A program made the position numbers and the translations under genes. This document shows, one piece after another, positions 33,826-51,075 of a stretch of 64,000 nucleotides of DNA. The notes under the pieces are model-generated. The model searched no databases. It worked only from the letters and a program-made list of their open reading frames with translations, and was not told where the DNA came from. Source of the DNA: a virus; the IMG/VR virus record IMGVR_UViG_3300020205_000565, positions 18,030-82,029 of that record; one strand, written 5' to 3'. Position 1 is the stretch's first letter, and each line of letters begins with the position of its first letter.

Positions 33826-34779
33826 TTAAACACCGTTATTTACTCTTAGGTTACTCATTGGACTAGGATATGACTTAAACATATCATAGTACTTACCATA
33901 CATTGCTTTACGGTTCATAGTCCATACTTTCTCCATCTCAGAGAAGTTAGGAGTATTAACTACTGTAAGTGCATTGTTTCTTGCTGCACGATATTCTTGT
34001 GCAACTAGCTGAACTTGATTTGTTACGTTTACCCCATCCATTACCAAGTTCTCTAGAATACGTTTCTTTAATCCATATTCGTAATACTCGTTAAGATAAG
34101 GATGATCAGGAACCATTAAGTGCCCTTCAGCATCCTCTAAAGTTCCCTGGTAGTTTATATAAATTTTAGCTTCATCAGTACAGTGATTAGTACCATCATT
34201 ATTTCTACGGTCATGATTATTATGCGTATTAAGATAAAGCCAACCGTCTTTAATATAAGCTTCATCCCTTGCCATAGATTGAAGATTCGGACAATCGCAA
34301 TCTATAAATTGTGAGTTTCTAAATCTAATTGGGGCAAATGTTTTATAAGTTCTCGTTTGATTATTAATTACTTGAATCAACTGGTATTCAGTTCCGCACT
34401 GTGTTAGACATACAGGTTGAGATGGTAAGGATACATCTGAACAATAGTTAGCCTCTACCCACGGTCTCCATTTTGGAGTAACATCTTGAATATTAGTACC
34501 TTGCGGCATTGACACATCCTCTGTGTATTCTCCGCATATCAATGCGAAGTTCATTACATAGAAGTCATCTGGTAAGCGTACGCGACCCTTTTCTACGTAT
34601 AATAATCTTTCTTTAGTCATGTATATACGTAGGCCAAGATCATAATTAATACGTGTAGCTACTTTGAGTAGCTGCGAAGGATCTACGCTTCCGTCGGTAA
34701 CTAAACTTTTTAAATCAAGCTTGACATCTTCAAGTAGTGATTCAAAAGTTCTATATTTAAGAGTGTAATTATAGTTCAT
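33826..34779 (-). CDS. Tail ring/tubular protein
   Basis: RVRLPDDF...YIKDGWLYLN...IYINYQG...GHLMVPD pattern; immediately upstream of the muzzle gene. Confidence 0.65.
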   Translation of the reverse strand: MNYNYTLKYRTFESLLEDVKLDLKSLVTDGSVDPSQLLKVATRINYDLGLRIYMTKERLLYVEKGRVRLPDDFYVMNFALICGEYTEDVSMPQGTNIQDVTPKWRPWVEANYCSDVSLPSQPVCLTQCGTEYQLIQVINNQTRTYKTFAPIRFRNSQFIDCDCPNLQSMARDEAYIKDGWLYLNTHNNHDRRNNDGTNHCTDEAKIYINYQGTLEDAEGHLMVPDHPYLNEYYEYGLKKRILENLVMDGVNVTNQVQLVAQEYRAARNNALTVVNTPNFSEMEKVWTMNRKAMYGKYYDMFKSYPSPMSNLRVNNGV

Positions 34780-35444
34780 GATCTATATACGGATTGTTTA
34801 TCTGAAATAAATTGGTCTTGAGGTATTTGAGCAGACTTCATGAAGTCAGCAACTACCTGCTGCTCTATCTCTGCAAAAAGTTCAGGTGGTACCCCTAATA
34901 ATTCTTGTTGACGCTGCATGCATGGATCTTCACAACTAAAGCCCATAACTCCAGCATCAAAGATTCCTTCTACGGATAATCCTTCCCATTCAACATTTGG
35001 AATATAGATATAGTTATCCATAAGCCAGAAGTAGGTATTCTTATTATATCTAAAAGCGGATGTCTTACTCATGCTATTATATAACGTAGGAGTTGTCCGA
35101 TAGGCTTCTGTAAAGCCGTCCATAGAAGTTACAGTACGTAGCAATGGACCCTGAGGTCCTTCCATTATATTTGGTATTCTAGTTTGTGTACGTTTAATTG
35201 TACAACCTGATTTAGGCTCACAGCAGGCTTCTACTTTATCTACGTCTATTAGTGGTATGCAGGGTAGACGTTTAAACATACTAGAGAACTTTGTTCCTGT
35301 TCCCTGGTTACTTTGACGTTTAATATACATCCCAGCGTATTTCATTATAAGACTATAGATAACACGGTCTGTGATAAAGTCATCCATGTCTACAGCCTTA
35401 ATAATGTTTCTAACACGAGATACTGCTTCTCCTACTGTTTTCAT
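34776..35444 (-). CDS. Tail ring/adaptor protein
   Basis: Size, synteny, and the ITDRVI...YFWLMDNYIYI...VEGIF pattern. Confidence 0.6.
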   Translation of the reverse strand: MKTVGEAVSRVRNIIKAVDMDDFITDRVIYSLIMKYAGMYIKRQSNQGTGTKFSSMFKRLPCIPLIDVDKVEACCEPKSGCTIKRTQTRIPNIMEGPQGPLLRTVTSMDGFTEAYRTTPTLYNSMSKTSAFRYNKNTYFWLMDNYIYIPNVEWEGLSVEGIFDAGVMGFSCEDPCMQRQQELLGVPPELFAEIEQQVVADFMKSAQIPQDQFISDKQSVYRS

Positions 35445-35446
35445 AA

Positions 35447-36034
35447 TTAATCTTTTAGATCAAATTCGTTATATTCTATTAACTTCTCTTTTGTTTGTCT
35501 AGCTATTCGATTCTTCATGCAGGCTTTATCAAATAGTTTTGATACAGTAAACATCTTATCTATTACTATAAACTTCTTCCAGTTGTCCCGGAACTCTTTA
35601 GTAACAGCTCGTTTAAAATATCTGTTAGCAGTAAATCCCCATAGAACCCTGTCTCGTAGTTTGTATCGAGACTGATAGTTGCTGTAGAATATCTTACTAA
35701 TGTAACCATCTGTATCCCAGTTCTTATGAGTAACCTTAACGCCATACTTAATGGACTTACCATAATCTATATTTTCTTTAATAGGTTGCTGACAAGCTCC
35801 AATAAAAAGGTAACCTAGATTCTCTGGTAACTCTATACCGTCTCTGTTTTCAATCGTTTCTCTCCAAAGCTTTTCGTTAAAAGCCTTTACTATTTTTTTA
35901 GTTAACGCTAGGTCAACATCTTTGTGTTCTGGATACTTAGCTTTAAAGTCTTTAATATACTGTTTAGTAATTAACTTAACTTTTGGGGCTCTATATCTCG
36001 GGGCATTTAAGTTTGGTTTTTTGAAGTTCTGCAT
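35447..36034 (-). CDS. HU/IHF-like DNA-binding protein (crAss tail-module type)
   Basis: Basic protein with helices followed by GIELPENLGYLFI, resembling the IHF beta arm. IHF-like genes are typical of crAss-like tail modules. Confidence 0.6.
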   Translation of the reverse strand: MQNFKKPNLNAPRYRAPKVKLITKQYIKDFKAKYPEHKDVDLALTKKIVKAFNEKLWRETIENRDGIELPENLGYLFIGACQQPIKENIDYGKSIKYGVKVTHKNWDTDGYISKIFYSNYQSRYKLRDRVLWGFTANRYFKRAVTKEFRDNWKKFIVIDKMFTVSKLFDKACMKNRIARQTKEKLIEYNEFDLKD

Positions 36035-36109
36035 ACGCCTTAGTACAATTTACGAAATTTATTCTAGCTTTAAAAGTAATACATCATTGAATACTAAACA
36101 AATATAGTG

Positions 36110-36138
36110 AAAAACCCCCAAGCCATTGCCTGAGGGTC
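36110..36138 (-). terminator. Intrinsic terminator
   Basis: Minus strand reads ACCCTCAGGC-AATG-GCTTGGGGGT-TTTT: a 10-bp stem with G:U pairs followed by a U tract. Confidence 0.75.
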
Positions 36139-36177
36139 TCTCTTGTTTAGTCACGCTAAACCAACAAACGTGGACTA
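36110..36177 (-). ncRNA. Candidate 3'-UTR small RNA (hairpin with UGUUGGUUU loop plus terminator)
   Basis: UAGUC(C)ACGUU-UGUUGGUUU-AGCGUGACUA hairpin directly before the terminator. The loop is complementary to AAACCAAC motifs at gene starts. Confidence 0.45.
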
Positions 36178-36741
36178 TAATGCCGGTAGTGTCTTTATAA
36201 TTATAATAGCGCTGGTAGAACTTGCTGCGTCATCTATACAATTTGTTCTTACTTGAAAATAATAATTAGTATTAGGAGTTAGCAAAGTAAGCGTATAACT
36301 ATTCGTAGTTAAGTTAGCCGTAGACGTCCATACCCCGGGGATAGTTCCGTAATCTACATTATAATAATCAGCTCCAGTAAGTTCCCACGTAAGTATAATT
36401 GTAGTTGTACCTACATAAGTAGGATGTACATTAATAGGGGGAAGACAGTCAGTATCCCAGCTTTGTACAGACATGGCCTGATAAGCGTTCTCTAGAGATG
36501 CTCCTGCAGGTAATGCTGGATAGTAACCATTATCTGAAATAGTATTACCAAACTGATATATAGAATATAGAGAACTATGTTTTACACAAGTATCCTGGAT
36601 AGTTTCATAACACGGAGTTGGATCCGGGCAAGTTATATCTGGAGGACATGTGAAAACAGCAGCAGTTGTAAGGGGTAAATCCTTACAACCGCATAAGTTA
36701 GTTGATGATACTGTATTAGAACCGCAAGTTGTGCAAGCCAT
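36175..36741 (-). CDS. Cys-rich virion protein with a C-terminal FN3 domain
   Basis: CTTC...CGC N-terminus; ILTW...YNVDY...LTPNTNYYFQVRT is an FN3 signature. Confidence 0.65.
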   Translation of the reverse strand: MACTTCGSNTVSSTNLCGCKDLPLTTAAVFTCPPDITCPDPTPCYETIQDTCVKHSSLYSIYQFGNTISDNGYYPALPAGASLENAYQAMSVQSWDTDCLPPINVHPTYVGTTTIILTWELTGADYYNVDYGTIPGVWTSTANLTTNSYTLTLLTPNTNYYFQVRTNCIDDAASSTSAIIIIKTLPAL

Positions 36742-36753
36742 ATTTTTAGTTTA

Positions 36754-38229
36754 TTAAGCCGTCTCTACTGATTGATAATCACAATCCTTAATGATACCGC
36801 CTACGATTACTCTTACTCTAACATTATAGGTAGTACTTGGTGTAAGCCCCGTTAACGTTCCAGTTATGGCACCAGATGCAGGATTTACAATAGTAGCTGT
36901 TGTTACTACAGCAGTTATACCGTTGTTCCAACATTCTACTATGTAAGTTACACCTGCACTAATAGGGTTAGTAAAGCTAAAATCTATATAGTCCCAAGGC
37001 GACCCTACAGCGTAGCTCATAGCGGGGCAAGTATCAAAGTTCTCTACTCCTACAGTTAAACATTTGTTACATGTAAGGTCTCCGTCAGAAGCACATACAT
37101 CTAATTTAACTGTATAGTCTGTATACAAGTTTAATAACGATACTGATAGATCAATAAGTTGCGTAGCTCCACCAAGGTTAGGTATAACCGATACCTGTGT
37201 TGTATATGTTAGGCCGAAGGCATCTGTAATAGTAACAAACATACCTCCCGCAAAACAGTCTACAAATGATCCAGCAGATCCTGTAAATGCTAGCTCTATA
37301 TTAGGAGTAGAAAACTGAGCATCCATTATTATTTGAACATCGTCACAAGTAGTATTGCAACAGTTTGTAACTATGTTTTGTACAGCAGATCGCATATCAC
37401 ATACAGTAACCCATAGGTTATTTACAGCTGCTGCCATAGTATTTACATCTCCCGCGTTGAGCCAACCTGGTAAACCAGCCATAGAAATGGTAGGATTACT
37501 TAAGGTAGGTGAAGTATCAAGATTAATACACTGTTGTCCAATTGCTGAAGTAATTTCTCCAGGATTTCCAGTAGCGGTTCGTAAATCACAAAATGCTGCC
37601 TCAAGCTCTTCTACAAAATCTACTATAGGAATATTTGTAGCGCCTGTTATACATACACTAGACGGTACAATTATCTGATCTTTTATAGACTTAACTAAAC
37701 CTCCCGCTGGAAATACAACTTGAGATATAGAGTCAATTTCTTTAGTATGTAAAGTAAGAGTTTTATTTATAGTTACTGTGCCATCTATAATTCCACAAAT
37801 AGTGTTTCCGATTAATGTAGCAAAGTCAGTAACTGAAAGTTGAACAACCATATCCCCTAAAGGATTAGGAAATTGCAAACATTCAGGAACTGGTACTAAG
37901 CAAGCTAATGTTGCAGCACAGTCCGCTGGTGAATTAGTGGACGGAGTACTTTGCATAGCACAAAGCTGATCCAAAATGAATTGGATAATATCCTTAACAC
38001 TTGTTGGCACAGGTGAGATAGGAGGGAAACAACTTACGTCAAATCCGGATACTTTTAATTCATCAAGAAGTGTACATAGTTCCGTTGCAACTTTATAAGT
38101 TACATCGGAAATACTATCTCCTTTGCATAAGTTAATGCAAGAGATATCTGGACCTTGCCAGATAACACAGTTACTTGATAACGGTGTACAGCCTCTTTGT
38201 GTATTCGTAGGTTCTAGTGGAAGTGCCAT
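36754..38229 (-). CDS. Cys-rich tail appendage protein with a C-terminal FN3 domain
   Basis: SSNCVIWQGPDISC N-terminus, many Cys, and GLTPSTTYNVRVRV (FN3). Confidence 0.6.
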   Translation of the reverse strand: MALPLEPTNTQRGCTPLSSNCVIWQGPDISCINLCKGDSISDVTYKVATELCTLLDELKVSGFDVSCFPPISPVPTSVKDIIQFILDQLCAMQSTPSTNSPADCAATLACLVPVPECLQFPNPLGDMVVQLSVTDFATLIGNTICGIIDGTVTINKTLTLHTKEIDSISQVVFPAGGLVKSIKDQIIVPSSVCITGATNIPIVDFVEELEAAFCDLRTATGNPGEITSAIGQQCINLDTSPTLSNPTISMAGLPGWLNAGDVNTMAAAVNNLWVTVCDMRSAVQNIVTNCCNTTCDDVQIIMDAQFSTPNIELAFTGSAGSFVDCFAGGMFVTITDAFGLTYTTQVSVIPNLGGATQLIDLSVSLLNLYTDYTVKLDVCASDGDLTCNKCLTVGVENFDTCPAMSYAVGSPWDYIDFSFTNPISAGVTYIVECWNNGITAVVTTATIVNPASGAITGTLTGLTPSTTYNVRVRVIVGGIIKDCDYQSVETA

Positions 38230-38257
38230 ATATATAATTTACAAAATTTTTATCTAA

Positions 38258-39058
38258 TTAACTAGGTTCTGGACAAATAATTGGGATTACGGCAACCGGT
38301 ATCGTACAAGCATTTGGATCTGTCATTACAGAATAATCGGATTGCTCTTTCTTAATCCATAGTTTATCTAAGTCTATAGTATCGCAACAGTTACCATATC
38401 CGTTTTTAAGGCCAAGGAATAACTTATAGTATCCGTTAGCAAATTTGATATTAGCATTGATGTCGCATTCTCCTTGAGTAACCTGATAAAATAATCTAGG
38501 GGACTTAGGGATTGTTTCAGAATAAGGTAATGGTAATGTGTCAGGCGAGCTTCCGGGTACTGGAAAAGGATCTGGTGGTGGGGGATAAGGTCCTCCCAAA
38601 CAACAAGGACAGTCCTCAAATGAATTTAAGAATGTTACTGTCTCAGTAGATGCAACTACCGAAATACTTACTTCCCAACAACCGGGGTACTCCGAAATGG
38701 TTATAACTGATCCATCATAGCTAACATCAATCCCATCAACATTTAATATTGTACCGTCTTGACAATTAGTTAATTCAATACTTGATACCGGACAACCCGC
38801 TGCTCCAAAAGTAGCTAAAGCAACATCTGTAACAATAGCTCCTACTTGACAGTTTGCTGCATAATCTCCGCAAGTACCACTGCAACATACGCTATCTATC
38901 AGCCAGGTTCCTGGTAATAGTGGATCAGTCGTACTAAAGTTATTACCAACTTCGGCATCCCATATAGTATACGTTGGAGATCCTTCTAGACCAATATTAA
39001 GCCATACTATAGTTCCAGTTTCACAGTTTACTATTTTTAAACAGCAGATTATAATCAT
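38258..39058 (-). CDS. Cys-rich structural protein
   Basis: LxNC...CxxC repeat shared with the neighbouring 938-aa protein; Pro-rich linker. Confidence 0.55.
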   Translation of the reverse strand: MIIICCLKIVNCETGTIVWLNIGLEGSPTYTIWDAEVGNNFSTTDPLLPGTWLIDSVCCSGTCGDYAANCQVGAIVTDVALATFGAAGCPVSSIELTNCQDGTILNVDGIDVSYDGSVITISEYPGCWEVSISVVASTETVTFLNSFEDCPCCLGGPYPPPPDPFPVPGSSPDTLPLPYSETIPKSPRLFYQVTQGECDINANIKFANGYYKLFLGLKNGYGNCCDTIDLDKLWIKKEQSDYSVMTDPNACTIPVAVIPIICPEPS

Positions 39059-39059
39059 A

Positions 39060-41876
39060 TTAGCAGAGATAAGATAAGCAGGTTGGACAATCGTTATAAG
39101 CTACATCTACAGTTACTACTACTTGTGGTAAGAATGTAAATGTTTCTTCTATAGTAAAGCATATGTCAGGATATTCTACAAATGTTAGTATAGGTAGATT
39201 CTGGTTTGTACCGCCGGTTAAATATGATGACAAATCTGTAGTAGTTTGCAATAGTGGAGTAGTCTCTCCGCACCTTATTAAATTATAATAAGGGGTAACT
39301 TCGTTATCCTGATTACAATCTATACAGTCTGTATATGCCGTAATCTGATCAACGGTAATGTTTAAAGTAGTAGAATTAGTGCATGCGCTATTTAAACTTA
39401 CATATAGACATACTTCAACGCCTTCAATAAATATATACTGGTCTATAAACTGAGCCATAAAATCGTTATCCTGACCCGTAGTATTTACAGAGGCATATAC
39501 TGTATTATCAGCGCAGTTGATTAAATCATAGCAACAGGTATTAAACGGTATTGCCGATACACAGTTACAATAATAAACTAGTGTTGTTGGATCCTGTATT
39601 ATTTGACAAGGGTTCGTACACGTTAAAGACGACTGTGAAATAGCACAAACTATTGACGCCGATATAGATAGGCCTATTCCAGCATATGCACTAGGAATAA
39701 GATCAGTTTGATAATAATCCGGTAAGCCTGAAACAGCATTACTAGGGAATTTATCTGACGTTGTATAACTTCCATTCCAGCTTGGGCAAGTTCCAATATT
39801 TATTTCACCAGCAGTTTGTGAAATGTTATCACCACCATCTTTTAAAACATTTCCAAAAATAGATGAGTTATCTAAATAGCAAGGTGTTACTAAGTCTGTT
39901 GGATCTATTCCAACAAAAGCGCCTTTAGTAATATTTTGCTCTATAGTTTGTCCTGTAATTAATAATGTTATTTCAGTTGATCCTCCACTTCCTACATTAG
40001 GTACAGCAGTTCCCGCTTTAATTTCTTGAGCTAAATCCATTGTAGCAATGTAATCAGCAAGTCTTCTATTTTGATAAGTAGTTTGAATGATGCTGGTAAT
40101 ATCATTTACACCATAGAATCCGCATACCTGATTTGCAGGAGTAGTTCCAAATGATGTTATAATAGCTGGTAATGTAACACCATAATTCGTAAGTAAGGCA
40201 TTAGGATCAATATAATTAGGCCAACCATCTGTCACAAATAAAATCTTTTTATTTGCAGCAGGTCTACTATTTGTTCCCCAAACTACATCATAACCCCTAC
40301 CTAAACCCGCAAAACTATTTGTAAAACCGATTCCCTGCGTAGGAAGTATTCCATATATATCAGGAGTAGTTCCTGAGGCTCCTGCTAAGGGGAGACCCAT
40401 AGCATTAATTGCATTTTTAAGTAATCCCGCATTAGATACAGTACCCGCCGGAGAATTATTAGCTCCTCCTGATTCCCAGGCTGTTGGGCCGTAATTTAAA
40501 CTAACGCCTCCCACTGTTGCATAAGAAGCTGCATCAAAGAATACAACTCCTACTCTAATGTCTCCAGAAGTAATTCGACCTAAGCTGTTCGCAAGAGTAT
40601 TTAAGTTGCCATTAATGTCATATCCCATCTCTAGACCATCAACAATACTCCTAAGCATATTCTTATACTCCGGCATTTCTTCTTGAGTAATAGATCCTGA
40701 GATATCTATAACTATTGCTACATCAGTTTCACAAGCTACAGGATTTGTCCCTTCGCAATCACCTGTTACTGGATTATATACTAACCCCTCTGGACACATT
40801 GGGGTATTACTAATACATTGTTGGGATGTCTCATCCCATGAGAAACCTGGTTCACATCCGCAGCCTACTATAGCCGATACAGCCGGAAACATTGGGAAAA
40901 ATGTAGGATCAGTATTTGTATTATTAATATTACTACCGTTATCAGCTGTATAAAATATATCTGTTCCATTACCTACAGCAAATCCTTTACCACTTAAGTA
41001 AAAATCTATTCCACTAAGATTGGGCCCACCAAAATCATAAACTGTAGTAGGTGTTGTAGCAAAGTCATCTGTAGTAGCATATAATTTTGTACGGCTATTT
41101 ACGTAGAGCGTTCCTTCAGCATAGCTTATGTTTTTAATACTCGTAACTACAAAATGCGCATCAGGAAATGAATAAATTAAAGTAAATGCTGCGGACGCCA
41201 CTGACCTATATACACCGTCTAAAGTAACAGCATACAATGTATCTGTTGCTAGGACATAGTGTAGGGCGCCTACAATATTAGATGCCCCAGGAGTTCCAAG
41301 TAAGGCAAATGACGCAGCATTATCTATACTTTTAAATACTCTTGTTGGATTTAGTGCCGTACCTAAACCTACTGCTGCATATACATTTATATCGTCTCCT
41401 GCTAGCGCATAAATCTCAGGATTTCCTGAACCATAAATTGCTGCTGAAGTAATAGTAGTATTAAATCCTCCGGCAGGATTTGATGTAATACGTTTTAATA
41501 TATAAGCAATAGTTGGTTGGTTGCTTGCTGCCGTATAAGCATTAAGCCCATCCTCTGTAAAAAGAGTAGTATTATAACCACCTATAGATGAGCCGACAGG
41601 TACCGTACTTGCCCAAGTGCCTGGGGCAGGAGCAAACGCTGTAGTACCACCATCGTAAGAAATAACAATACCAGGATGTGTTAATGCAGTTAAATATGAC
41701 GTAGTGCATACAACAGTATTTGAATCATCGGGGCTTACTATTAACCCTGCTATTATCCCATCATACTGAGGAAAGTACGATGTGTAAGTCCAAGTTGCCC
41801 CTAAATCATTAGAGTATTTAAGTTGACCTTTACCACCAGCATCTATTCCCGATACATATACTTTTACTGCAGACAT
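39060..41876 (-). CDS. Appendage/adhesin: Asp-box beta-propeller, Cys modules, vWA (MIDAS) domain and Cys repeats
   Basis: Asp boxes SNDLGATW, SYDGGTT, SIDNAASF and TADNGSN; MIDAS motif IVIDISGS...TNS...LFVTDGWPN; Cys modules CEPGFSWD..C and CPEGLVYNP..C. Confidence 0.7.
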   Translation of the reverse strand: MSAVKVYVSGIDAGGKGQLKYSNDLGATWTYTSYFPQYDGIIAGLIVSPDDSNTVVCTTSYLTALTHPGIVISYDGGTTAFAPAPGTWASTVPVGSSIGGYNTTLFTEDGLNAYTAASNQPTIAYILKRITSNPAGGFNTTITSAAIYGSGNPEIYALAGDDINVYAAVGLGTALNPTRVFKSIDNAASFALLGTPGASNIVGALHYVLATDTLYAVTLDGVYRSVASAAFTLIYSFPDAHFVVTSIKNISYAEGTLYVNSRTKLYATTDDFATTPTTVYDFGGPNLSGIDFYLSGKGFAVGNGTDIFYTADNGSNINNTNTDPTFFPMFPAVSAIVGCGCEPGFSWDETSQQCISNTPMCPEGLVYNPVTGDCEGTNPVACETDVAIVIDISGSITQEEMPEYKNMLRSIVDGLEMGYDINGNLNTLANSLGRITSGDIRVGVVFFDAASYATVGGVSLNYGPTAWESGGANNSPAGTVSNAGLLKNAINAMGLPLAGASGTTPDIYGILPTQGIGFTNSFAGLGRGYDVVWGTNSRPAANKKILFVTDGWPNYIDPNALLTNYGVTLPAIITSFGTTPANQVCGFYGVNDITSIIQTTYQNRRLADYIATMDLAQEIKAGTAVPNVGSGGSTEITLLITGQTIEQNITKGAFVGIDPTDLVTPCYLDNSSIFGNVLKDGGDNISQTAGEINIGTCPSWNGSYTTSDKFPSNAVSGLPDYYQTDLIPSAYAGIGLSISASIVCAISQSSLTCTNPCQIIQDPTTLVYYCNCVSAIPFNTCCYDLINCADNTVYASVNTTGQDNDFMAQFIDQYIFIEGVEVCLYVSLNSACTNSTTLNITVDQITAYTDCIDCNQDNEVTPYYNLIRCGETTPLLQTTTDLSSYLTGGTNQNLPILTFVEYPDICFTIEETFTFLPQVVVTVDVAYNDCPTCLSYLC

Positions 41877-41878
41877 AT

Positions 41879-42025
41879 TTAAGTTGTTTGTGGCAAAGCA
41901 GACTTTGGAGCCGGCTTAGCCTGTAATTGTTTAATACAGTTTGTACATCCTTGTTTTCCGTCAGGTGTTACTCTTTTCTGACATCCGCAGGACATCATAT
42001 TTCCGCAGTTTGAACATTTTGCCAT
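41879..42025 (-). CDS. 48-aa Cys-rich metal-binding peptide (CxxC-CxC-CxxC)
   Basis: Manual translation MAKCSNCGNMMSCGCQKRVTPDGKQGCTNCIKQLQAKPAPKSALPQTT. It fills the intergenic gap and is shorter than any ORF in the track. Confidence 0.75.
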   Translation of the reverse strand: MAKCSNCGNMMSCGCQKRVTPDGKQGCTNCIKQLQAKPAPKSALPQTT

Positions 42026-42052
42026 TGAAGTAATATATTGGTTTTTAACTAA

Positions 42053-42625
42053 TTAGCAATTTCCGCATCCACAGCTACAAGCTAATTTATCTAGTCTCGT
42101 AAGCACATAATTATAAATAGCCATCCCCTGCGATGGAGAATGGCAATATTCTACTTTAGCTTTAGCTGCCTTAAGCATAGTAGTAAGAAGTTGTACTTCT
42201 TGTAGTTTCGCTTTAATAGGAGCCTGAGGCTCGCAGTTTGGTACATCTAGACAACATAGAAGCTCATTGATTTTATTCATCGCCTCTGTAGTCCTCAGAT
42301 GGTTATATTCCACATAAACAAATTGGTGTGGGGCTACGCTATATCTAATAACATAAACTCCATCTACAACATTGTTTCTATAGCTATCGCAGTTAGTAGT
42401 TTGTGTATCTAATCCACAAGCTGTGATATTAACATCAAAGCTGCTTGTCGTACTAACGGTACCAAGGTCTTCAAATACGGAAGCCGTGGTAAAACCAGGA
42501 CAAGTTATCTCTAATCGAGGACATTCAATAGGTACGTTAATATTGTACGTACTTGTATCTACTATACGAATTACGCAAGTAGTTAACGTATCTGGAATAT
42601 CTAAAGATAATAAGTGTTGTGCCAT
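42053..42625 (-). CDS. Tail hub / fibre-attachment-like protein
   Basis: IVDTSTY...LEITCPG...DGVYVIRYSV pattern and synteny. Confidence 0.5.
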   Translation of the reverse strand: MAQHLLSLDIPDTLTTCVIRIVDTSTYNINVPIECPRLEITCPGFTTASVFEDLGTVSTTSSFDVNITACGLDTQTTNCDSYRNNVVDGVYVIRYSVAPHQFVYVEYNHLRTTEAMNKINELLCCLDVPNCEPQAPIKAKLQEVQLLTTMLKAAKAKVEYCHSPSQGMAIYNYVLTRLDKLACSCGCGNC

Positions 42626-42654
42626 AGTACTAAGTTACAAAGATATAGTGTAAA

Positions 42655-42696
42655 AATAAAAAAGGGAAGGAGTTTTTTTTGGCTCCCTCCCTTTTT
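42655..42696 (-). terminator. Intrinsic terminator (possibly bidirectional)
   Basis: AAAAAGGGAGGGAG...CTCCTTCCCTTTTTT on the minus strand. Confidence 0.8.
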
Positions 42697-42713
42697 AAAA
42701 GTATTAGTTAAGA

Positions 42714-44225
42714 TTATCTTTCGTTGTTCTGGTTAGGATCAACTGGTGTGCAAGTCTCTGGACAGTTATAAGGAGTCATGCTCTCACAAGCGCCACAGTT
42801 CTCTAACCAGGTATTTACAAACTTTTCAAAGTCTATCAATGATGGGTCAAAGAATGTGATTAGATCACCTTCTGAATAAGTACTATAATCACCTGTAACA
42901 GTAATTGTAGTACCAGTGATTCCAGCAATGATACCATCATCATCAAATCCAGTACCATCGTATAGAAAACCGACTCCTCCGCCTACGTAAGCACCTAGGG
43001 TAGATTCTACAGTAAATGTAGTTAAACCAGTTCCTGCATTATATGTAGGATTAGATGTAGCAACTGTATTCAATTGTGGAGCACCAGCGATCTCTAACAA
43101 GTACTGCTCATTATCAAATGTTCCAGTTGGGTTGTTAAAGCGAGGTACACTATGTTGGATATAGTAACTAGTGTAGTACGATGTACGGCTAATTGCTGCA
43201 GTAACGTCATTACCGTTAGTGATCTCACGAATACGTAAGTCAGTTCCAGTATAGAAAGGTTGTTGCATGTAACCTTCGGTTAAGATAAGTTCACGAATAA
43301 CATTTTCTCCTGTTCCTTTTAACTGAATTGGTTGACATTTATCATTTTCACAAAGACCTGTAAAAGCACAAGGATCTCCGTTAAGATCTACTTCAGAAGC
43401 ATAAAGCTTAACTGGCTCCAAGAATGATATAATAGAATCATTAGGGTAGAAAGTACAATCTTGGAAACGAGTATCAGCATAAGCTCCAGTGATAATTAAA
43501 CCAGCAAGAGTGTTCTCATCTGTTCCTGGAGGGAAAGCAGCACCTTCTAAAGTATAAGGTAACAATGCTTCAGCAGTTGTGCTATCGTCAGTATTAACTG
43601 GTTCGAATGCCTGCCAAGTCAATCCAGCATCAGTAGAGTAAGTAATTGTTACGTGGATGAATGGGTTAATCAAAATGCTATTCAAGAAGTCATAAGCCCA
43701 TTTAGTGTAAACAATTAAAGGGTTAACAGCTACTGGAGCAATTGCATCATCAGGACAACATCCTGTGTAAGCACCAGAAGTGTAGTAAGAGTTACGAGTT
43801 AAGTAACGTAATGCAGGTGATCCTTTAATATCCAAACGCAAAGAATAAGTTTCTCCACATAAGAATTGCTTAGCGCAAGTTCCTTCATAATTGTCTCCGT
43901 TAGCGCCTACAGTAATCTGTGCTTGCTGTGGAGTACAAGGAAGAACCTTGTAGAAGCGGTGTACATACTTAGGGTTGATAGTCTTAGACTTTACAGACTC
44001 GGAATATCCACCGTGGAATTTACCAATTTTGTCATTTGGATGAATAGATGCAGAAACTAAAACTGCTGGGCAGCATCCTTCAGGAGCTGACTCAAACTGT
44101 TTCCAAGTTTTAGGATCATAAAATGCAAATTGTCCAAGAGTAAGCTCGTTGGTAGCATCACCATTTGTTACGAAACCAGCGGTCCCGACAAAGGTTTTGT
44201 TAAAGGCATGATTAAAATAAGCCAT
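42714..44225 (-). CDS. Structural protein, probably auxiliary capsid protein
   Basis: Has its own promoter-like motif and terminator. VKSKTINPKYV...CGETYSLRLDIKG pattern and synteny downstream of the major capsid protein. Confidence 0.5.
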   Translation of the reverse strand: MAYFNHAFNKTFVGTAGFVTNGDATNELTLGQFAFYDPKTWKQFESAPEGCCPAVLVSASIHPNDKIGKFHGGYSESVKSKTINPKYVHRFYKVLPCTPQQAQITVGANGDNYEGTCAKQFLCGETYSLRLDIKGSPALRYLTRNSYYTSGAYTGCCPDDAIAPVAVNPLIVYTKWAYDFLNSILINPFIHVTITYSTDAGLTWQAFEPVNTDDSTTAEALLPYTLEGAAFPPGTDENTLAGLIITGAYADTRFQDCTFYPNDSIISFLEPVKLYASEVDLNGDPCAFTGLCENDKCQPIQLKGTGENVIRELILTEGYMQQPFYTGTDLRIREITNGNDVTAAISRTSYYTSYYIQHSVPRFNNPTGTFDNEQYLLEIAGAPQLNTVATSNPTYNAGTGLTTFTVESTLGAYVGGGVGFLYDGTGFDDDGIIAGITGTTITVTGDYSTYSEGDLITFFDPSLIDFEKFVNTWLENCGACESMTPYNCPETCTPVDPNQNNER

Positions 44226-44292
44226 GTTTTTTGTTTTTAAGGGTTATAAATATATATTTAATATAAGGAAAGTTTTTGTTCCTTCCAAATTT

Positions 44293-44886
44293 TTACAAAT
44301 AATCTTTCATCTCGTGGTCCAGTAAGCGCATTGCTGTCTTATCTGTACCAAAAGCATTTAACTGGTCAACCCAGTTCTGCATCTTGTTATGCTCCTCTAC
44401 CTGTTCTTTTAAATAAGCTAAAGCAAACTCATATAACATATGGTCCGCTTTCTTCATAGCGTCACCTGCTAAATCTTTGATCTGCTTAGTCACAGTGATC
44501 TCATGATCATAAGACATCTGTATAATTTCAGGAAGACCGTTAAAGGTTTGGTTAGGCGAATCTAGTTTTGGGGTAAGCGGTTGTACTCCCATGGATAATA
44601 AGTAGGTTCTTGCTAAGTCTGAATGAGACATCTCTTCATTAGAGTATCTGCGCCATAGTTTAGCAGCATTAACATAACCGTTGTTATCTAACCACATCGA
44701 CATAGCCAAGTATATTCTACCTGAGTATTCCTCTTGTTGTACACGATAGTTTAGATACTCTACACAGTCATCTGATAAAAGTATGTTCTTACCTTTTGTA
44801 GATGGTGCTTTCTTTATAGTTGATGCGGCAGGACTGGTAATACCTACTACTTCTCGCTTCAATAAATTTCTCGGTTGTTCCGCCAT
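44293..44886 (-). CDS. ftn: Ferritin (non-haem Ftn-like) with an N-terminal extension
   Basis: EEYS..IYLAMSMWL...EEMSH...HE...EQVEE matches the ferroxidase-centre pattern of FtnA. Confidence 0.85.
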   Translation of the reverse strand: MAEQPRNLLKREVVGITSPAASTIKKAPSTKGKNILLSDDCVEYLNYRVQQEEYSGRIYLAMSMWLDNNGYVNAAKLWRRYSNEEMSHSDLARTYLLSMGVQPLTPKLDSPNQTFNGLPEIIQMSYDHEITVTKQIKDLAGDAMKKADHMLYEFALAYLKEQVEEHNKMQNWVDQLNAFGTDKTAMRLLDHEMKDYL

Positions 44887-44898
44887 TATTTCTAGTTA

Positions 44899-45606
44899 TT
44901 AAGTGTTTTCTTCTCCAGATGATTTAGCAATCGAGTATTGATTCATAGACTCAATATCTCCTGCAAGTACCTGTACTGTTTCATCTATAAGTACTTCTAT
45001 AATATTATCTGCAAATTCGCAAATAATATCAGCAGTAGATACCTGTAATGTGTAAGGGTCAGTACAGCCCTCTATCTGAATTAGGACAGGATTCCTATAG
45101 TACATCAGATAACAGTTAACAACTTCAAAGTCGTTATCATTATATATACGTACTCTATCTCCTACAAGAGTACAGAATGTTTCTCCCCATTCAAAACTAG
45201 GCTTACGTAAATAATCCTGTAGGTAAACGGGAACATTCTGTTCTTCAGCAAGATAAGTAACGGTTATACTCTGTGGATCTTCGCAACATCCTTTTCTAGC
45301 ATTAGCGTCTATACGCTTAAACTGTAGATAGTCTGCTGGAAAAAGTTCAGTTTCTTGGTATAGGTTTTTTGGATAAAGTTCTACCAATACCTCTTTTAGT
45401 AAGTTCTGAAGATCATCTACTTTACGGGTAGACTGTTCATCTCCTTGCTTTTCAGCATTCATACCAATAAGTTGGCGACGGACCCATTGAATCTGTGCCT
45501 TATTAAAGGCCTCTACAATTTGCCAGCATTCGAAGTTATCGTAATCATTGCTGGCAAGCTTATTAAGTCGTTGCTTAATCTTAAGCTGTAGAGTAGTATT
45601 GTTCAT
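44899..45606 (-). CDS. Head-tail connector / ring protein
   Basis: AFNKAQ...DDLQNLL...P.DYL...YYRNP...CEF pattern seen in crAss ring proteins. Confidence 0.65.
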   Translation of the reverse strand: MNNTTLQLKIKQRLNKLASNDYDNFECWQIVEAFNKAQIQWVRRQLIGMNAEKQGDEQSTRKVDDLQNLLKEVLVELYPKNLYQETELFPADYLQFKRIDANARKGCCEDPQSITVTYLAEEQNVPVYLQDYLRKPSFEWGETFCTLVGDRVRIYNDNDFEVVNCYLMYYRNPVLIQIEGCTDPYTLQVSTADIICEFADNIIEVLIDETVQVLAGDIESMNQYSIAKSSGEENT

Positions 45607-45803
45607 TATCCGTTAACGCGTTTCAAGTTTGGGTTTGCTTTTTTAGCAGCAGAAGAAGCCTTACGAGCAGCAGAAGCTAAGATAGCTCCAGCAGCTGCTT
45701 TAGACACACCTTGCTTTTTTGCAATACTTGATTGTACTGCTTTAAATCCTGGATGACTTCCTCCTTTTTTATAGGATCCGCCACATTTTGCACAACCTGC
45801 CAT
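45606..45803 (-). CDS. Small Lys/Ala-rich basic protein
   Basis: CAKCGG, YKKGG, TAATG coupling to the next gene. Confidence 0.7.
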   Translation of the reverse strand: MAGCAKCGGSYKKGGSHPGFKAVQSSIAKKQGVSKAAAGAILASAARKASSAAKKANPNLKRVNG

Positions 45804-45815
45804 AGTACTATAGTT

Positions 45816-46064
45816 TTAACATTTCCATTTTCTAAGCGACTTGTTGATTCTGCTATCAGGATCATTAGCCGTTTTTGTGCTAGTAAGCTTCTTCTTCATA
45901 CCAGACATTCTAGCACAGAAGCTTTTCTTTCTAGAACCACCTTCAGGTTGAGGAGCTTTCAGGTTCCCGCCTGTTTCTTTATTATAAGAAGCACGCCCTT
46001 TAGCGTTGAGGCCTCCGCTTGGAGCCTTACCTTCTTTTCTTTGCCACGCTGGACTTTTTGCCAT
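45816..46064 (-). CDS. Small basic phage protein (RKKSFCARM...RKWKC type)
   Basis: Motif type that I recognise as common in aquatic phages. Confidence 0.7.
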   Translation of the reverse strand: MAKSPAWQRKEGKAPSGGLNAKGRASYNKETGGNLKAPQPEGGSRKKSFCARMSGMKKKLTSTKTANDPDSRINKSLRKWKC

Positions 46065-46290
46065 TGTCTTTAGGATAAGGATTTTCTTTATGCCATTTCT
46101 TTGTGGCAGCTACTCCCTGTTTAACAGTCTTAGCTCCCGCTTTCTTAGTAAGGTCTATCGTATCCCATTCGCCTTTATCTTTAGTAGGATGATTAACCAT
46201 GATGTTACCAACCTTACCTTCTCCTTGTTTAGTAGTCTTTTTATAGACTACATGCTTTTCACCGCCCGCAGATACTCTAGCTTTAGCCAT
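46027..46290 (-). CDS. Small basic protein
   Basis: Lys-rich ORF with a TAATG-coupled start. Confidence 0.65.
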   Translation of the reverse strand: MAKARVSAGGEKHVVYKKTTKQGEGKVGNIMVNHPTKDKGEWDTIDLTKKAGAKTVKQGVAATKKWHKENPYPKDNGKKSSVAKKRR

Positions 46291-46436
46291 TACTTCTTAG
46301 CTTTAATCTTTTTTTCTTGCTTTAGCATTTCTGCTGTAGGTTTCTTTCCAGAACCTTTATTAGCACGGATGTTATCCCAGAGACCTCTCTGGGAAACACT
46401 ACCGTCCTTGCGTTTAAGCATTTCTTTTTTAGCCAT
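46290..46436 (-). CDS. 48-aa basic protein (GLWDNIR motif)
   Basis: Manual translation MAKKEMLKRKDGSVSQRGLWDNIRANKGSGKKPTAEMLKQEKKIKAKK; fills the gap exactly. Confidence 0.75.
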   Translation of the reverse strand: MAKKEMLKRKDGSVSQRGLWDNIRANKGSGKKPTAEMLKQEKKIKAKK

Positions 46437-46437
46437 G

Positions 46438-46656
46438 TTATTTTCCTTTTACCATACCGCCAAGCATTTTAATCTGCTCTTGTGCAAACTTCTTTACATC
46501 AGTCATCATCTTAGGATTGCTACGAATTTCTTCGGCACGACGTAAAGTATTCATAGCTGATTCAATTTCCCATTTACGCATCTCCGCTTTATTTGGAGAA
46601 GAAATGCTAATCGAAGCAGTAGATTTTTTAGGAGTAGCTGTTTTTTTTGCTGCCAT
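46438..46656 (-). CDS. Small basic protein
   Basis: ORF track; part of the tightly packed cluster. Confidence 0.7.
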   Translation of the reverse strand: MAAKKTATPKKSTASISISSPNKAEMRKWEIESAMNTLRRAEEIRSNPKMMTDVKKFAQEQIKMLGGMVKGK

Positions 46657-46658
46657 AG

Positions 46659-46781
46659 TTATTTCTTTTTAGGAAGTTCTACTAAACCACATTTAGAAGC
46701 GCCTCCTCCTGAAAATTTAGGAGGAGAGCCCTTCTTATAATGTACTAAATTTTTAGCTTCCTTGTTAGTAAGGATAGCCAT
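46659..46781 (-). CDS. 40-aa basic protein
   Basis: Manual translation MAILTNKEAKNLVHYKKGSPPKFSGGGASKCGLVELPKKK; TAATG-coupled. Confidence 0.65.
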   Translation of the reverse strand: MAILTNKEAKNLVHYKKGSPPKFSGGGASKCGLVELPKKK

Positions 46782-46969
46782 TAACGTCCTGGTTTAGGCT
46801 GTGGTTTATTAACTCCTCCAGATGATTTACCTGCAGATTTCTTAGTAGCAACTGCGTTAGCGTTTACGCCACCAGATGACTTACCAGCAGATTTTTTAAT
46901 AGCGTTAAATACGCCCATACTGTTTGGATTAGATTTTCCACCAATACCTTTTGCGCCTGAATTTTTCAT
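46781..46969 (-). CDS. Small basic Gly/Lys protein with an internal repeat
   Basis: KKSAGKSSGGVN occurs twice. Confidence 0.65.
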   Translation of the reverse strand: MKNSGAKGIGGKSNPNSMGVFNAIKKSAGKSSGGVNANAVATKKSAGKSSGGVNKPQPKPGR

Positions 46970-46996
46970 TTCTTTAAGTGTTTATATATAAGATAG

Positions 46997-48016
46997 TTAT
47001 TGATTCCAATATTTTTCTACTTTTTTTAATAAATCTACTAGAACGTCTTCGTGAAGAGGATTGTTTAAATACTCTACGGCATCTGCTTGATTACGTCCAA
47101 TAAGGATGTTCTTATCAGCAGTGTATACAAATCCATCAGCTTTTGTTACAATAAATTTATAGAAGGTGGCGTCCTTAACAAGTGCCTTTAACTTAAGTAT
47201 TTCCATAGCTAAGTTAGCAGAGTCTAAGAACATTTGTGCAGCGCGGTTAGCATTCTTTTCAGAACCTTGTCCACTAATGAAATTATCCATGTTATCATAA
47301 ACAACATCATTAGGCGTACTCTTTCTATACTGCGCGCTCGCGGTATCTACAATTTTAGCAACGTAAAGAAGTTTATTTGTATTCTTATCAAACAACTTCT
47401 GTAGTTCAGAAAGAGCTTTATTACGTAATTTCTTACTTTCTGTTTTAGTTGAAACGGTTTCAACGTGTCTGTCTAAGAAGAACTTAGGAACAGGCATCTT
47501 TGATCTAGCGTCATCGTAGCTTTTAGCTATGATGCTAAAACCTCCAGCATTAATAGCATAAAGTTTTACCAAGTCATAAGGATCTTTTGGATCCAAGTAG
47601 ATTGGCTCATTTCCAGCTTTAATTTCAATCTTTGACCAAAAAGCATCGTTATCTGGTCTAAGTAATTTTATTTTATTCCAGAATTCTTTATCATCAGGAT
47701 CAACTACGTTAGCAGCTAATTCTTTTTCAAGCTCTGCTACTACCGCTCTGATTTCACGAATCGTGGCTTCTCTTGTTTCAGGATCAGGAATGTTTTTAAT
47801 CTCTGGAGCAAATTCATTAAGTCCTGTTACATATCTCTTGATCCCGTTGAATTCAAGACAGGCTAGCTGTTCCATATGTTTGACTCCTTCGTAAAGAGAC
47901 ATACCATATTTCTCTAACCCCATGTTACTAATTCGATCATCGAAGTAGGGTTTAATTGCGATGGGACTTCTTTTAGTTTCAGAGTACCTCTCGACTTTTG
48001 TAAATGCTGTTGTCAT
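46997..48016 (-). CDS. Conserved crAss-like protein downstream of the major capsid protein
   Basis: YVTGL...FWS...LDP.DP.D pattern and synteny. Confidence 0.55.
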   Translation of the reverse strand: MTTAFTKVERYSETKRSPIAIKPYFDDRISNMGLEKYGMSLYEGVKHMEQLACLEFNGIKRYVTGLNEFAPEIKNIPDPETREATIREIRAVVAELEKELAANVVDPDDKEFWNKIKLLRPDNDAFWSKIEIKAGNEPIYLDPKDPYDLVKLYAINAGGFSIIAKSYDDARSKMPVPKFFLDRHVETVSTKTESKKLRNKALSELQKLFDKNTNKLLYVAKIVDTASAQYRKSTPNDVVYDNMDNFISGQGSEKNANRAAQMFLDSANLAMEILKLKALVKDATFYKFIVTKADGFVYTADKNILIGRNQADAVEYLNNPLHEDVLVDLLKKVEKYWNQ

Positions 48017-48054
48017 TTAGTTGGTTTTTATTAATTGGTTTTTGTAAAGGTAGT

Positions 48055-48084
48055 AAAAAAGGGGGAGATTTTAGCCTCCCCCCG
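48055..48084 (-). terminator. Intrinsic terminator after the major capsid protein gene
   Basis: GGGGGAGG-CTAAAA-TCTCCCCC-TTTTTT on the minus strand. Confidence 0.85.
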
Positions 48085-48104
48085 TTTTTACAGATTATTT
48101 AAGA

Positions 48105-49724
48105 TTAGAATGATCCGCCAGTAACTGGGTTACGCATAACGATTTTCAATACTTTGGTCGGGTCTTTAACCCAGATCGCAGGCATGTTTTGCGTCATGTA
48201 TACGCGGTAACCGTTGAATTGTCCAGAAGACGCGAAGCCTTGGCTACGTCCCATGTAATCCATAGTTCCGTTTTGGTACCACCATTTCAATTGGTTATCC
48301 CAGTTAAGTTTCAACAAGAAGATATTATCGTTAGTGTTATCGGTAATATCAAAGATGATGAAGCTATAAAAAGACAATGGGAAACCATCAATGATTGGGT
48401 TCTCAATATCGTTAGTATGTAAGTTATCGAACGCTGGGTTCAACACGAACTTAACGTTAGCCAAGAATGGGATAACATAAGAAGTGTAAGCGAATCCGAA
48501 GTTCAAATCCATACCCTTACCAGTAATTGCTCCGATGTCAGCAGCTTGGATCAACAATCCTGAAGACATTGCTTCACGTGCGATTGCTGCATTAACCATG
48601 CGCATACCTGCCATACCGGTTTGTACGATAAGCTGACGCTTAGGATCTGGTCCTTGGAAGTCAACTTTACCTGCGTAGAAGTTGTACAATTCAGAACGGA
48701 ACAAATCTAAGTTGAAACCAGCCTTGTTATATACGCGCTTGAACGAGTTGTCCAATTGCTTCCAAAGACCGACTGATAAACGGATATCATCTGGACCGTC
48801 TTGACGAACGCGTCCACCTTGTCCCCACATTAAGTAAGTCTCGATATCGCTAGCTACTTTGCTCAAGTGAGCTGCTTCCATAGTAGTCAAGAATGTACGA
48901 GATAATGAACCATTACCCATAGCGCGCTTAACATAATCCTTACCCATGCGAGAAACCATAGTATCTAGGTTAGCTACAGATGGATCCATGTTCTTGTCAA
49001 AGTTGCGCCAGATTTCAGTAACAGGTACAGTACCGTCAGCGTTCATTCCGCCTTTGATCATAAGATCAGCGCGAGAAGATACAGAATAGTGTACGTGTGC
49101 TTCAGCTCCTCCTACGAAGTTGTAGAATTCACGGAAACCGGTTTGTGTAGTGATGTCAGAGAAACGCTCTCCGTATTCTCCACGAGCAGAACCTTTACGG
49201 AAGATTTTAGTACCTGGTGCAAGATAGTTAGTTGATAAAGCAAAAGAGCTATCATTGTTAACTAATTGTACAGTGTACAAGAAACCATCTCCCAAAGGAA
49301 TAATGTCGTCTACAGTAATGTACATCTCAGCACCGTTATATTTGTCATAAGTGATGATATCACCATGTCCAAATTCGCGACGTGAAATTTTAATTTTGAA
49401 CGTTTGTCCATCAGTACCTACTGTCTCGGCACCATTTAATTCTACATCGTCAACAATGTAAGGAAGATCTAATACAACCGGCGTCTGCCATTTGTATTCT
49501 CCTCTTGCGTTATCGACATTAATTACGTTCTTTCCACCAAAGCTAGACATTTGGTACAAAGGCATTTCTACCTTTTGTGCCATTGCCCAAAGATCTACTG
49601 GTCCTAAATCCATAGGTTCAGAGTTCTTGAGCATGTTAACCAAGTGGTAAGAATCTACGTGTGAACTAGCGGCGTAGTTGGTATCTCGTAGAAATATACC
49701 ATTGTTTAAAACTGGAGTTGACAT
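48105..49724 (-). CDS. Major capsid protein (crAss-like, HK97 fold)
   Basis: Portal-scaffold-MCP synteny; EYKW, GLWKQL, QTGMAG and IWVKDPTK motifs; followed by a strong terminator. Confidence 0.85.
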   Translation of the reverse strand: MSTPVLNNGIFLRDTNYAASSHVDSYHLVNMLKNSEPMDLGPVDLWAMAQKVEMPLYQMSSFGGKNVINVDNARGEYKWQTPVVLDLPYIVDDVELNGAETVGTDGQTFKIKISRREFGHGDIITYDKYNGAEMYITVDDIIPLGDGFLYTVQLVNNDSSFALSTNYLAPGTKIFRKGSARGEYGERFSDITTQTGFREFYNFVGGAEAHVHYSVSSRADLMIKGGMNADGTVPVTEIWRNFDKNMDPSVANLDTMVSRMGKDYVKRAMGNGSLSRTFLTTMEAAHLSKVASDIETYLMWGQGGRVRQDGPDDIRLSVGLWKQLDNSFKRVYNKAGFNLDLFRSELYNFYAGKVDFQGPDPKRQLIVQTGMAGMRMVNAAIAREAMSSGLLIQAADIGAITGKGMDLNFGFAYTSYVIPFLANVKFVLNPAFDNLHTNDIENPIIDGFPLSFYSFIIFDITDNTNDNIFLLKLNWDNQLKWWYQNGTMDYMGRSQGFASSGQFNGYRVYMTQNMPAIWVKDPTKVLKIVMRNPVTGGSF

Positions 49725-49750
49725 GTTTATTTATTTAAGGGTTAATTTTA

Positions 49751-50968: not shown

Positions 50969-51075
50969 ATGGTTGGTTTTTTAAATTCTCTACAATATTA
51001 ATATACGCAAATCTATAGTTTAAACTTTAGAAATTAAGACGTTAAAAAAAATATAGTTGACTTTATAGCAAAAGC

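Follow-up and report, generated by a model that had tools for sequence, protein, structure and literature searches.

The 3′ end of a phage tail-fibre operon carries a hairpin with an invariant loop, UUUGUUGGUUU, that complements AAACCAACAAA exactly, and the 8-mer AAACCAAC is a start-site motif of the same phage. The best explanation, to which we give a probability of about one half, is RNA-RNA pairing between the loop of this 3′-UTR hairpin and the leaders that carry the motif. Judged from sequence, the element is a strong candidate for an RNA with which the phage regulates translation through base pairing. The window, i.e., the whole stretch of 64,000 nucleotides that was analysed, is the final 64 kb of an 82-kb contig, a phage genome fragment, and all genes across the region lie on the minus strand.

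By its protein content, the source phage is a deeply branching crAss-like phage, uncultured and from freshwater. The assignment is based on TerL, which matches the terminase family, on a 539-aa protein matching the major head protein family, on giant virion proteins encoded in the window, and on the nearest named phages, which are Crassvirales with a TerL identity of only ~25%. Complete relatives measure 114-135 kb and have terminal repeats. The phage DNA is present in freshwater lake metagenomes, the GenBank phage collection gave no nucleotide match to it, and a search for tRNA and tmRNA genes found none. Relatives of its TerL were binned in two lake Chitinophagaceae MAGs and in three non-Bacteroidota bins (MAG contigs L414, L415 and L419); the former give a weak hint of the host, and the latter are probably binning errors. 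The ferritin gene, which was considered as a further host clue, had no bacterial relative. Bacteroidia ribosomes are blind to the Shine-Dalgarno (SD) sequence (PMC7797042, PMC6847099), and the host probably belongs to a phylum without SD recognition.

The hairpin and its surroundings comprise the following features:

36148 to 36177, minus strand: hairpin 1, whose 5′ arm begins at the stop codon (TAG) of the FN3 gene and whose loop displays UUUGUUGGUUU
36158 to 36168, minus strand: loop block UUUGUUGGUUU, the proposed seed, complement of AAACCAACAAA; invariant columns in the FN3-anchored alignment
36109 to 36142, minus strand: intrinsic terminator, a 15-bp stem followed by UUUUU, with compensatory changes in relatives
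36099 to 36106, minus strand: TATATTTG, a match to TAnnTTTG directly 3′ of the terminator, conserved in the alignment
36041 to 36060, minus strand: box AAATTT(C/T)GTAAATTnTA in the leader of the 195-aa gene, conserved and promoter-like, recurring before the 491-aa gene

The upstream gene, of 188 aa and ending at 36175, has an fn3 domain. The original prediction of a minus-strand hairpin that begins at the FN3 stop codon and is followed by an intrinsic terminator describes the structure correctly: the stem is UAGUC-C-ACGUU / AGCGU-GACUA (36177-36148), the loop is UGUUGGUUU, and a 5-nt linker separates the hairpin from the terminator. The 86-nt fold has a minimum free energy of -32.9 kcal/mol (z = -5.1), which none of 200 shuffles equalled, and the loop is predicted to be unpaired with a probability of 0.7-0.95. 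The terminator combines a GC-rich stem-loop, a U tract, a position at the operon end and covariation in relatives. No Rfam family matched anywhere in the window at gathering thresholds, and at an E-value threshold the best match scored 19.8 bits, far under its threshold of 114. In the contigs of one metatranscriptome run, compared against 34000-52000, pieces of the phage were present and 35803-37004 had no cover.

TAnnTTTG is the Bacteroidota -7 promoter consensus, and by this consensus TATATTTG may be read as a promoter. Boxes of a compact, promoter-like kind, conserved throughout the clade, recur ahead of late genes (50990-51005, 36041-36060 and ~38235-38255, all on the minus strand), with TTTG..TATATTAATATTGTAG before the scaffold gene and AAATTT(T/C)GTAAATTnTA before the 195-aa and 491-aa genes. 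Unlike the spaced -33/-7 promoter of Bacteroidota, these boxes are compact, and they may be phage-specific late promoters.

Several other interpretations of the structure were rejected. A pseudoknot between loop UUGUU and linker AACAA was dismissed because the linker is missing in G006, G016-G018, L237 and L238, and an alternative helix proposed by RNAalifold (UUGGUU/GACUAA) was a product of the MAFFT alignment of near-identical rows. The promoters of N4-type virion RNA polymerases are several similar hairpins upstream of early genes. Such a promoter was rejected here, since each genome has only one hairpin, which closes a late operon and has a terminator behind it.

The hairpin is conserved among relatives. 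Across ~120 related phage contigs located by protein anchors, it lies just past whichever gene closes the tail-fibre operon; every evaluable relative carries it, and the loop core (U)UUGUUGGUU(U) is essentially invariant. All 15 FN3-anchored loci (47-90% identity) contain the element, with an invariant block TTTGTTGGTTT and with stem and terminator varying by compensating substitutions. Four more distant genomes have wholly different stems (GUCU-A-GCUU, AGUCUGGUU and GUCGCAG), and 23 loci from a second anchor set contributed GUCAG, GGAGG, GUCGGAG and AGCGG; at least 12 different stem sequences occur among relatives. As a sample unbiased with respect to the loop, 80 loci were anchored on the downstream 195-aa protein (alignment A2), which at least 447 contigs encode, and 79 of the loci were evaluable. 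Of these, 71 have the exact 10-mer TTGTTGGTTT, and the other eight are single-base variants at the loop edge. By position, 59 of the 80 loci have the exact 10-mer in a hairpin directly upstream, 8 have the loop-edge variants, 12 have hairpin and terminator 1.35-1.5 kb upstream of the anchor with an extra gene inserted, and one has an upstream sequence too short to judge.

If the element is an RNA structure under selection, its stem should covary in relatives while its loop stays the same, as had been predicted. This is the pattern found in all evaluable relatives, the loop being near-invariant. When 38 distinct hairpins were aligned with a covariance model, 98.5% of cells proved to be paired and six of the seven pairs showed double changes; none of 500 shuffles was as good, and slid controls reached 26-65%. 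The fold of each homologue places the complement of the motif in the loop. The loop core is unchanged while flanking proteins drop to 43-57% identity and the upstream gene becomes non-homologous between genomes. The compensating changes in the aligned sequences identify the hairpin as a selected RNA structure.

Exactly one hairpin with terminator is present per genome. A putative second hairpin of G016 and G019 falls within a 140-aa gene coded on the opposite strand and was rejected as an element. The stem begins 0-10 nt past the upstream stop codon, and in most genomes 7-18 nt separate the stop from the loop sequence TTGTTGG. The short gap between stop and stem leaves no room for a promoter of the hairpin's own in most genomes; L327 and L309, with AT-rich spacers of 50-77 nt, could hold one. 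Because the hairpin starts so close behind the stop codon of a hypervariable gene, the element belongs to the operon 3′ end, and the predicted origin from a 3′ UTR fits this arrangement.

The gene upstream of the hairpin (36175-36741 of the window, minus strand, and the homologous positions in L293-L372) is hypervariable, with unrelated C-terminal sequences, and the conserved part beside it comprises the hairpin, the terminator, the promoter and the 195-aa gene. This border looks like a cassette-exchange boundary for receptor-binding genes. The same contrast between variable gene and conserved flank would be expected if the element were a plain terminator within a conserved junction at which homologous recombination exchanges tail-fibre cassettes. 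Such linkers are conserved as sequence, and not as an invariant loop within a compensating stem, and a junction of this kind would leave the complementary start-site motif unexplained; we consider this exceedingly improbable. In one subclade (L373-L399) an extra gene of ~1.3 kb stands between the hairpin-terminator and the 195-aa gene, and the hairpin stays with the upstream operon. This arrangement is found in the subclade at the following positions:

G016, reverse complement, 47524: hairpin upstream of the inserted gene
G017, reverse complement, 45648: hairpin upstream of the inserted gene
G018, plus strand, 51907: hairpin upstream of the inserted gene
G019, plus strand, 52604: hairpin upstream of the inserted gene

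The motif that matches the loop occurs in the window at the following sites:

50972 to 50979, minus strand: AAACCAAC at the scaffold-like 405-aa gene, 3 nt before the ATG; conserved putative target
48020 to 48027, minus strand: AAACCAAC at the 339-aa gene, 3 nt before the ATG; conserved putative target
48034 to 48041, minus strand: tandem upstream copy AAACCAAT in the leader of the 339-aa gene, just past the capsid-gene terminator
58827 to 58834, minus strand: AAACCAAC at the 84-aa gene, in codons 2-5 of the annotated ORF; energy -9.8 kcal/mol
42037 to 42044, minus strand: degenerate copy AAACCAAT at the Cys-peptide gene, 11 nt before the ATG
56027 to 56034, minus strand: AAACCAAC in codons 3-5 of TerL, shared only with relatives that are 96-99% identical
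61088, minus strand: fifth minus-strand AAACCAAC, unlisted earlier, not near a start

The copies claimed before the scaffold and 339-aa genes are in place. At the scaffold-like gene, 22 of 24 distinct upstream regions contain AAACCAAC without a mismatch, and the leader has a duplex plus opening energy of -9.6 kcal/mol. The 339-aa gene (48028-48104, minus strand) lies ~40 nt past the capsid-gene terminator; its copy is present in all six genomes compared (-9.1 kcal/mol), and the second copy expected near 48035 proved to be the tandem AAACCAAT. The order AAACCAAT then AAACCAAC is kept in distant relatives with variable spacing. The copy in codons 2-5 of the 84-aa gene was also found as predicted, and it is a conserved site. 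Most relatives have a second in-frame ATG 5-9 nt after the motif of this ORF (58585-58839, minus strand), and here it follows at 17 nt; judging from this comparison, the downstream ATG is probably the true start. All four 9-mers AAAACCAAC lie within 15 nt of an ATG, in agreement with the original prediction.

Two claimed sites fared less well. The TerL copy is indeed present in codons 3-5, and it fails as a conserved target: the site reads AAAACTAAC at 94% TerL identity, through a synonymous change, and CAACAAAC at ~82%, where the motif is missing even from contigs that keep the hairpin. From this pattern it is probably fortuitous. Of the two copies proposed from a 7-mer, the one at the Cys-peptide gene stands, as the degenerate AAACCAAT, and in relatives this gene has the motif in its exact form, AAACCAAC, 4-5 nt ahead of its ATG. 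The copy at the start of the 195-aa (IHF-like) gene (36012-36019) is coding sequence for K-K-P and has changed to AAACCAGA in relatives. The 123-aa gene of G006 and G007 is preceded by AAACCAAC, its 127-aa counterpart in the window lacks the motif, and a few opposite-strand genes are also preceded by it. The conserved targets predicted from these alignments are thus the scaffold-like, 339-aa, Cys-peptide, 84-aa and 123-127-aa genes and a few opposite-strand genes.

Two further occurrences were noted. A AAACCAAC on the plus strand, at 12907, gives the minus strand a second GTTGGTTT, within the final codons of a 959-aa gene; at 12900-12930 (minus strand) this sits in a weak AU-rich 5-bp hairpin (UAUAG/CUAUA, loop UUGGUUUA), with an AT-rich hairpin behind it. 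Of the relatives, only the nearest, G001, shares it, and it probably arose by chance. The conserved opposite-strand 140-aa gene encodes the motif in frame (AAAAACCAAC..., K-K-P-T), so that coding conservation mimics a motif copy. Its sites are:

G001, 50463: in-frame motif in the 140-aa gene
G002, 45780: in-frame motif in the 140-aa gene
G003, 112761: in-frame motif in the 140-aa gene
G004, 20000: in-frame motif in the 140-aa gene
G016, reverse complement, 116071: in-frame motif in the 140-aa gene
G019, 122026: in-frame motif in the 140-aa gene

The placement of AAACCAAC is not random. The window contains seven copies where 2.1 are expected, a number reached in none of 100 shuffles, and the other 18 kb of the contig contain none. 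Overall, 40-44% of copies stand 0-8 nt before an ORF-opening ATG. The counts are:

80 TerL-anchored loci, 809 kb: 116 sense and 6 antisense copies, 80 copies being 0-8 nt before any ATG
10 genomes, both strands: 97 copies, 39 of them 0-8 nt before an ATG that opens at least 40 codons
4.8 Mb: 281 copies, 123 of them 0-8 nt before an ATG that opens at least 40 codons

Among 56 permutations of the same letters in the same 10 genomes, the median was 1 of 38 copies at starts, and all 24 single-mismatch variants in the 4.8 Mb showed 0-23% start placement. The predicted genome-wide enrichment near start codons is therefore very strong, and by these counts AAACCAAC is a genuine, clade-specific start-site motif, the most start-specific word of these genomes. 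As an SD-type site it was rejected by direct inspection, having zero complementarity to the CCUCC anti-SD. Five named Crassvirales-type genomes showed no enrichment of AAACCAAC. In the candidate host Chitinophagaceae MAGs, AAACCAAC followed by ATG reached only ~1.5x control, and the sampled copies mostly did not lie at gene starts (3 of 20 precede an ORF of at least 60 codons). Many starts of the distant crAss-like Flavobacterium phage FPSV-S29 (L413, 1-50000) have TTTAAA(A) ~10-20 nt before the ATG, which may be a different clade-specific start-site motif.

The gap between AAACCAAC and the ATG is mostly 3-5 nt, whereas the gap from the promoter-like box (TTTG..TATATTAnTAnTGTAG) to AAACCAAC varies from 0 to 14 nt. 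A fixed distance to the ATG and a variable one to the box tie the motif to translation and not to transcription. This bears on the possibility that a phage DNA-binding protein, e.g., the product of the neighbouring 195-aa gene, recognises AAACCAAC/GTTGGTTT in double-stranded DNA, with the hairpin copy as an opposite-orientation site ~55 bp upstream of the next promoter. The conserved copies do all lie in or beside intergenic DNA, and the hairpin copy is upstream of a TAnnTTTG box. A DNA site would, however, need no covarying stem around it, would not be expected to hold its distance to the ATG instead of to the promoter-like boxes, and would not explain motifs in polycistronic junctions without promoters, the strand bias of 116 to 6, or the hairpin remaining with its terminator when an extra gene parts it from the 195-aa gene. 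We therefore regard such a site as highly unlikely.

What the analysis shows is a pair of elements that are conserved, accessible by prediction and exactly complementary. Hairpin-terminator and motif co-occur in all 16 whole or near-whole genomes examined, and both are restricted to the same clade. Following the 8-mer core of the motif, A is found in 76, 72 and 62% of copies at positions +1, +2 and +3, against a background of ~48%, and in 41% at +4. Since the enrichment extends to +3 only, the complementarity reaches exactly as far as the invariant loop. Targets were ranked by the sum of duplex and opening energies; a cofold ranking was dropped because pairing of a loop with a linear strand is a pseudoknot in that model. 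Five initiation regions of this genome scored from -9.1 to -10.5 kcal/mol (opening cost 0.1-2.8), the next best scored -6.2, and the median was -2.8.

The main competing view is that the two elements are independent and their complementarity is coincidental. In that case AAACCAAC would be a phage-private C/A-rich enhancer read by S1, or by a phage RNA-binding protein like RegA of T4, and the hairpin loop would bind another factor or stabilise the 3′ end; for the motif itself, the original prediction had named a protein-binding or translation-enhancer site as its alternative. The motif is needed as the exact 8-mer, with no tolerance of wobble, which fits recognition by a protein at least as well as pairing: across the 4.8 Mb, wobble-compatible variants were at starts in 7.6% of cases and pair-breaking variants in 6.9%, with no difference in enrichment. 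Its presence on genes of expected high expression, e.g., the scaffold gene, suggests a positive role. No covariation between loop and target was found among the clade genomes, where both are invariant, and the rare loop variants GGUUA (G011, G012), GGUAU (G013) and UUAGUUGG (G015, G025-G028) are unmatched by changes in the motif. An alternative loop type, GGUUGGUU, was searched for and not found, and a pattern scan for the loop type UGGUUGGUUU returned only chance matches among the matches listed. A frozen loop and a frozen motif are, nonetheless, what is expected if one reader serves many targets. Independence also leaves it to chance that an invariant loop of 9-11 nt perfectly complements the most start-specific 8-mer of the genome, that the A-enrichment past the core stops exactly at the limit of the loop, and that both features are confined to the same clade. 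The probability of an accidental match is roughly estimated, allowing for composition and the number of conserved loops, at 1e-3 to 1e-2. Independence is thus doubtful, if still a serious contender.

Under the pairing hypothesis, the ~70-nt tail of the tail-fibre operon mRNA, composed of hairpin and terminator, would act as a base-pairing riboregulator, either within the mRNA or as a processed 3′-UTR fragment. Its exposed loop, 5′-UUUGUUGGUUU-3′, would pair with the phage-specific leader motif 5′-AAACCAAC(AAA)-3′, whose end lies 3-5 nt from the AUG in a small set of phage genes (scaffold-like, 339-aa, Cys-peptide, 84-aa and 123-127-aa). Positions from about -14 to -1 would be taken up by the duplex. 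As this lies within the ribosome footprint, occlusion of the initiation site would be the most likely consequence, on a probable host ribosome that ignores the SD sequence and depends on unstructured, A-rich leaders; the outcome would most likely be repression or dosage tuning. It is from the arrangement of the two elements that we infer pairing of loop and motif, accumulation of the RNA and the sign of its effect. Against the pairing hypothesis, the regulator is itself late, as are all its targets, and a 3′ UTR present once per mRNA would need to keep pace with highly abundant targets, e.g., the scaffold mRNA. The original prediction had the RNA shut down head assembly once tail genes are expressed, and nothing supports this specific story.

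Pairing could also be real and act in cis, or positively, stabilising or activating messages instead of repressing them. In the cis form, the 5′ and 3′ ends of the operon mRNA would make contact, with the Cys-peptide gene, which has the motif in relatives, perhaps heading the transcription unit; in the positive form, short leaders would be protected from 5′-end-dependent decay. A precedent for pairing between 3′ and 5′ UTRs is the icaR mRNA of Staphylococcus aureus, in which a 3′-UTR motif complementary to the ribosome-binding sequence blocks initiation (PMC3868564). Here, too, a 3′-UTR motif is complementary to initiation regions; icaR differs in acting on its own mRNA and on a true SD sequence, whereas the present motif is not SD-like and most of its targets are on other transcripts. 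The Cys-peptide gene has a terminator-like site ahead of it (42144-42120), after which the first strong terminator is that past the hairpin, and in several genomes the motif directly follows a promoter-like box and hence would stand at the very 5′ end of the mRNA. Most motif genes (scaffold-like, 339-aa, 123-aa and opposite-strand), however, belong to other transcription units, the Cys-peptide gene of relatives lies only 8 nt past the previous gene with no terminator between them, and the leader of the FN3 gene itself lacks AAACCAAC. A cis or positive role is therefore unlikely.

In another version of pairing, the hairpin RNA would not repress, and would instead be supplied by the phage to read a ribosome-binding code of its own. 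The invariant loop would then play the part of an anti-SD in trans: phage mRNAs that bear the motif would be linked through it to the ribosome, or else to a factor of the phage, and a few virion genes would gain privileged translation. This would explain the frozen loop and motif, the distance to the AUG, which resembles that of a ribosome-binding site, and the presence of the motif on genes needed in large amounts. The likeness to the SD/anti-SD system lies in one invariant RNA sequence facing many short motifs at a fixed distance from the start, with both sides frozen since one reader serves many targets. The differences are that AAACCAAC is not complementary to CCUCC, stands nearer to the AUG (3-5 nt) and marks only 4-6 genes per genome. 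We hold such a reader to be very unlikely.

If the loop does pair with the leaders to mask them, the element would be closest to the 3′-UTR-derived base-pairing sRNAs of enterobacteria, of the CpxQ, SroC, DapZ and MicL type. Shared with these are the location in a 3′ UTR, the use of the intrinsic terminator of the mRNA, a short conserved seed just upstream of it and, as predicted here, several targets in trans that are paired at translation initiation regions. The element follows a stop codon and has the intrinsic terminator of the mRNA for its own, in the same layout in all relatives, and its conserved single-stranded seed is complementary to conserved target sites. Compensatory change between seed and target was not found, both sides being invariant and the rare loop variants unfollowed. 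In contrast to the enterobacterial sRNAs, no Hfq is expected here (Bacteroidota), the seed is in a hairpin loop, and the targets are genes of the phage itself. SRNAs of the RsaE/RoxS type of Firmicutes pair C-rich loops with G-rich SD sequences. GibS of Bacteroides thetaiotaomicron demonstrates that such sRNA regulation exists in a phylum without SD and Hfq (PMC7366714), and 3′-UTR-derived sRNAs have been reviewed (PMC5502269). With RsaE/RoxS and GibS the element has in common a conserved, single-stranded stretch, within a small RNA that ends in a terminator, which is directed at several ribosome-binding regions, the pairing being predicted here; those RNAs are chromosomal, have their own promoters and target host metabolism, and there is no sequence or Rfam similarity. 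In the literature, with a catalogue of structured RNAs from IMG/VR (PMC10690425) outside the comparison, we found no paper that describes the element.

Within a large freshwater clade this small pair of elements is universal. Start-codon calling in the clade genomes benefits from the motif, e.g., for the 84-aa and scaffold genes, and the hairpin marks the end of the tail-fibre operon beside a hypervariable receptor-binding cassette. If the pairing is true, crAss-like phages, which are dominant and poorly understood, would own a riboregulator together with its regulon inside the phage genome, and there would be a defined, sequence-specific start signal other than the SD sequence in a phylum whose start selection is still being worked out. 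Because the host phylum probably lacks SD recognition, a private start code and an RNA that reads or masks it would be an interesting possibility.
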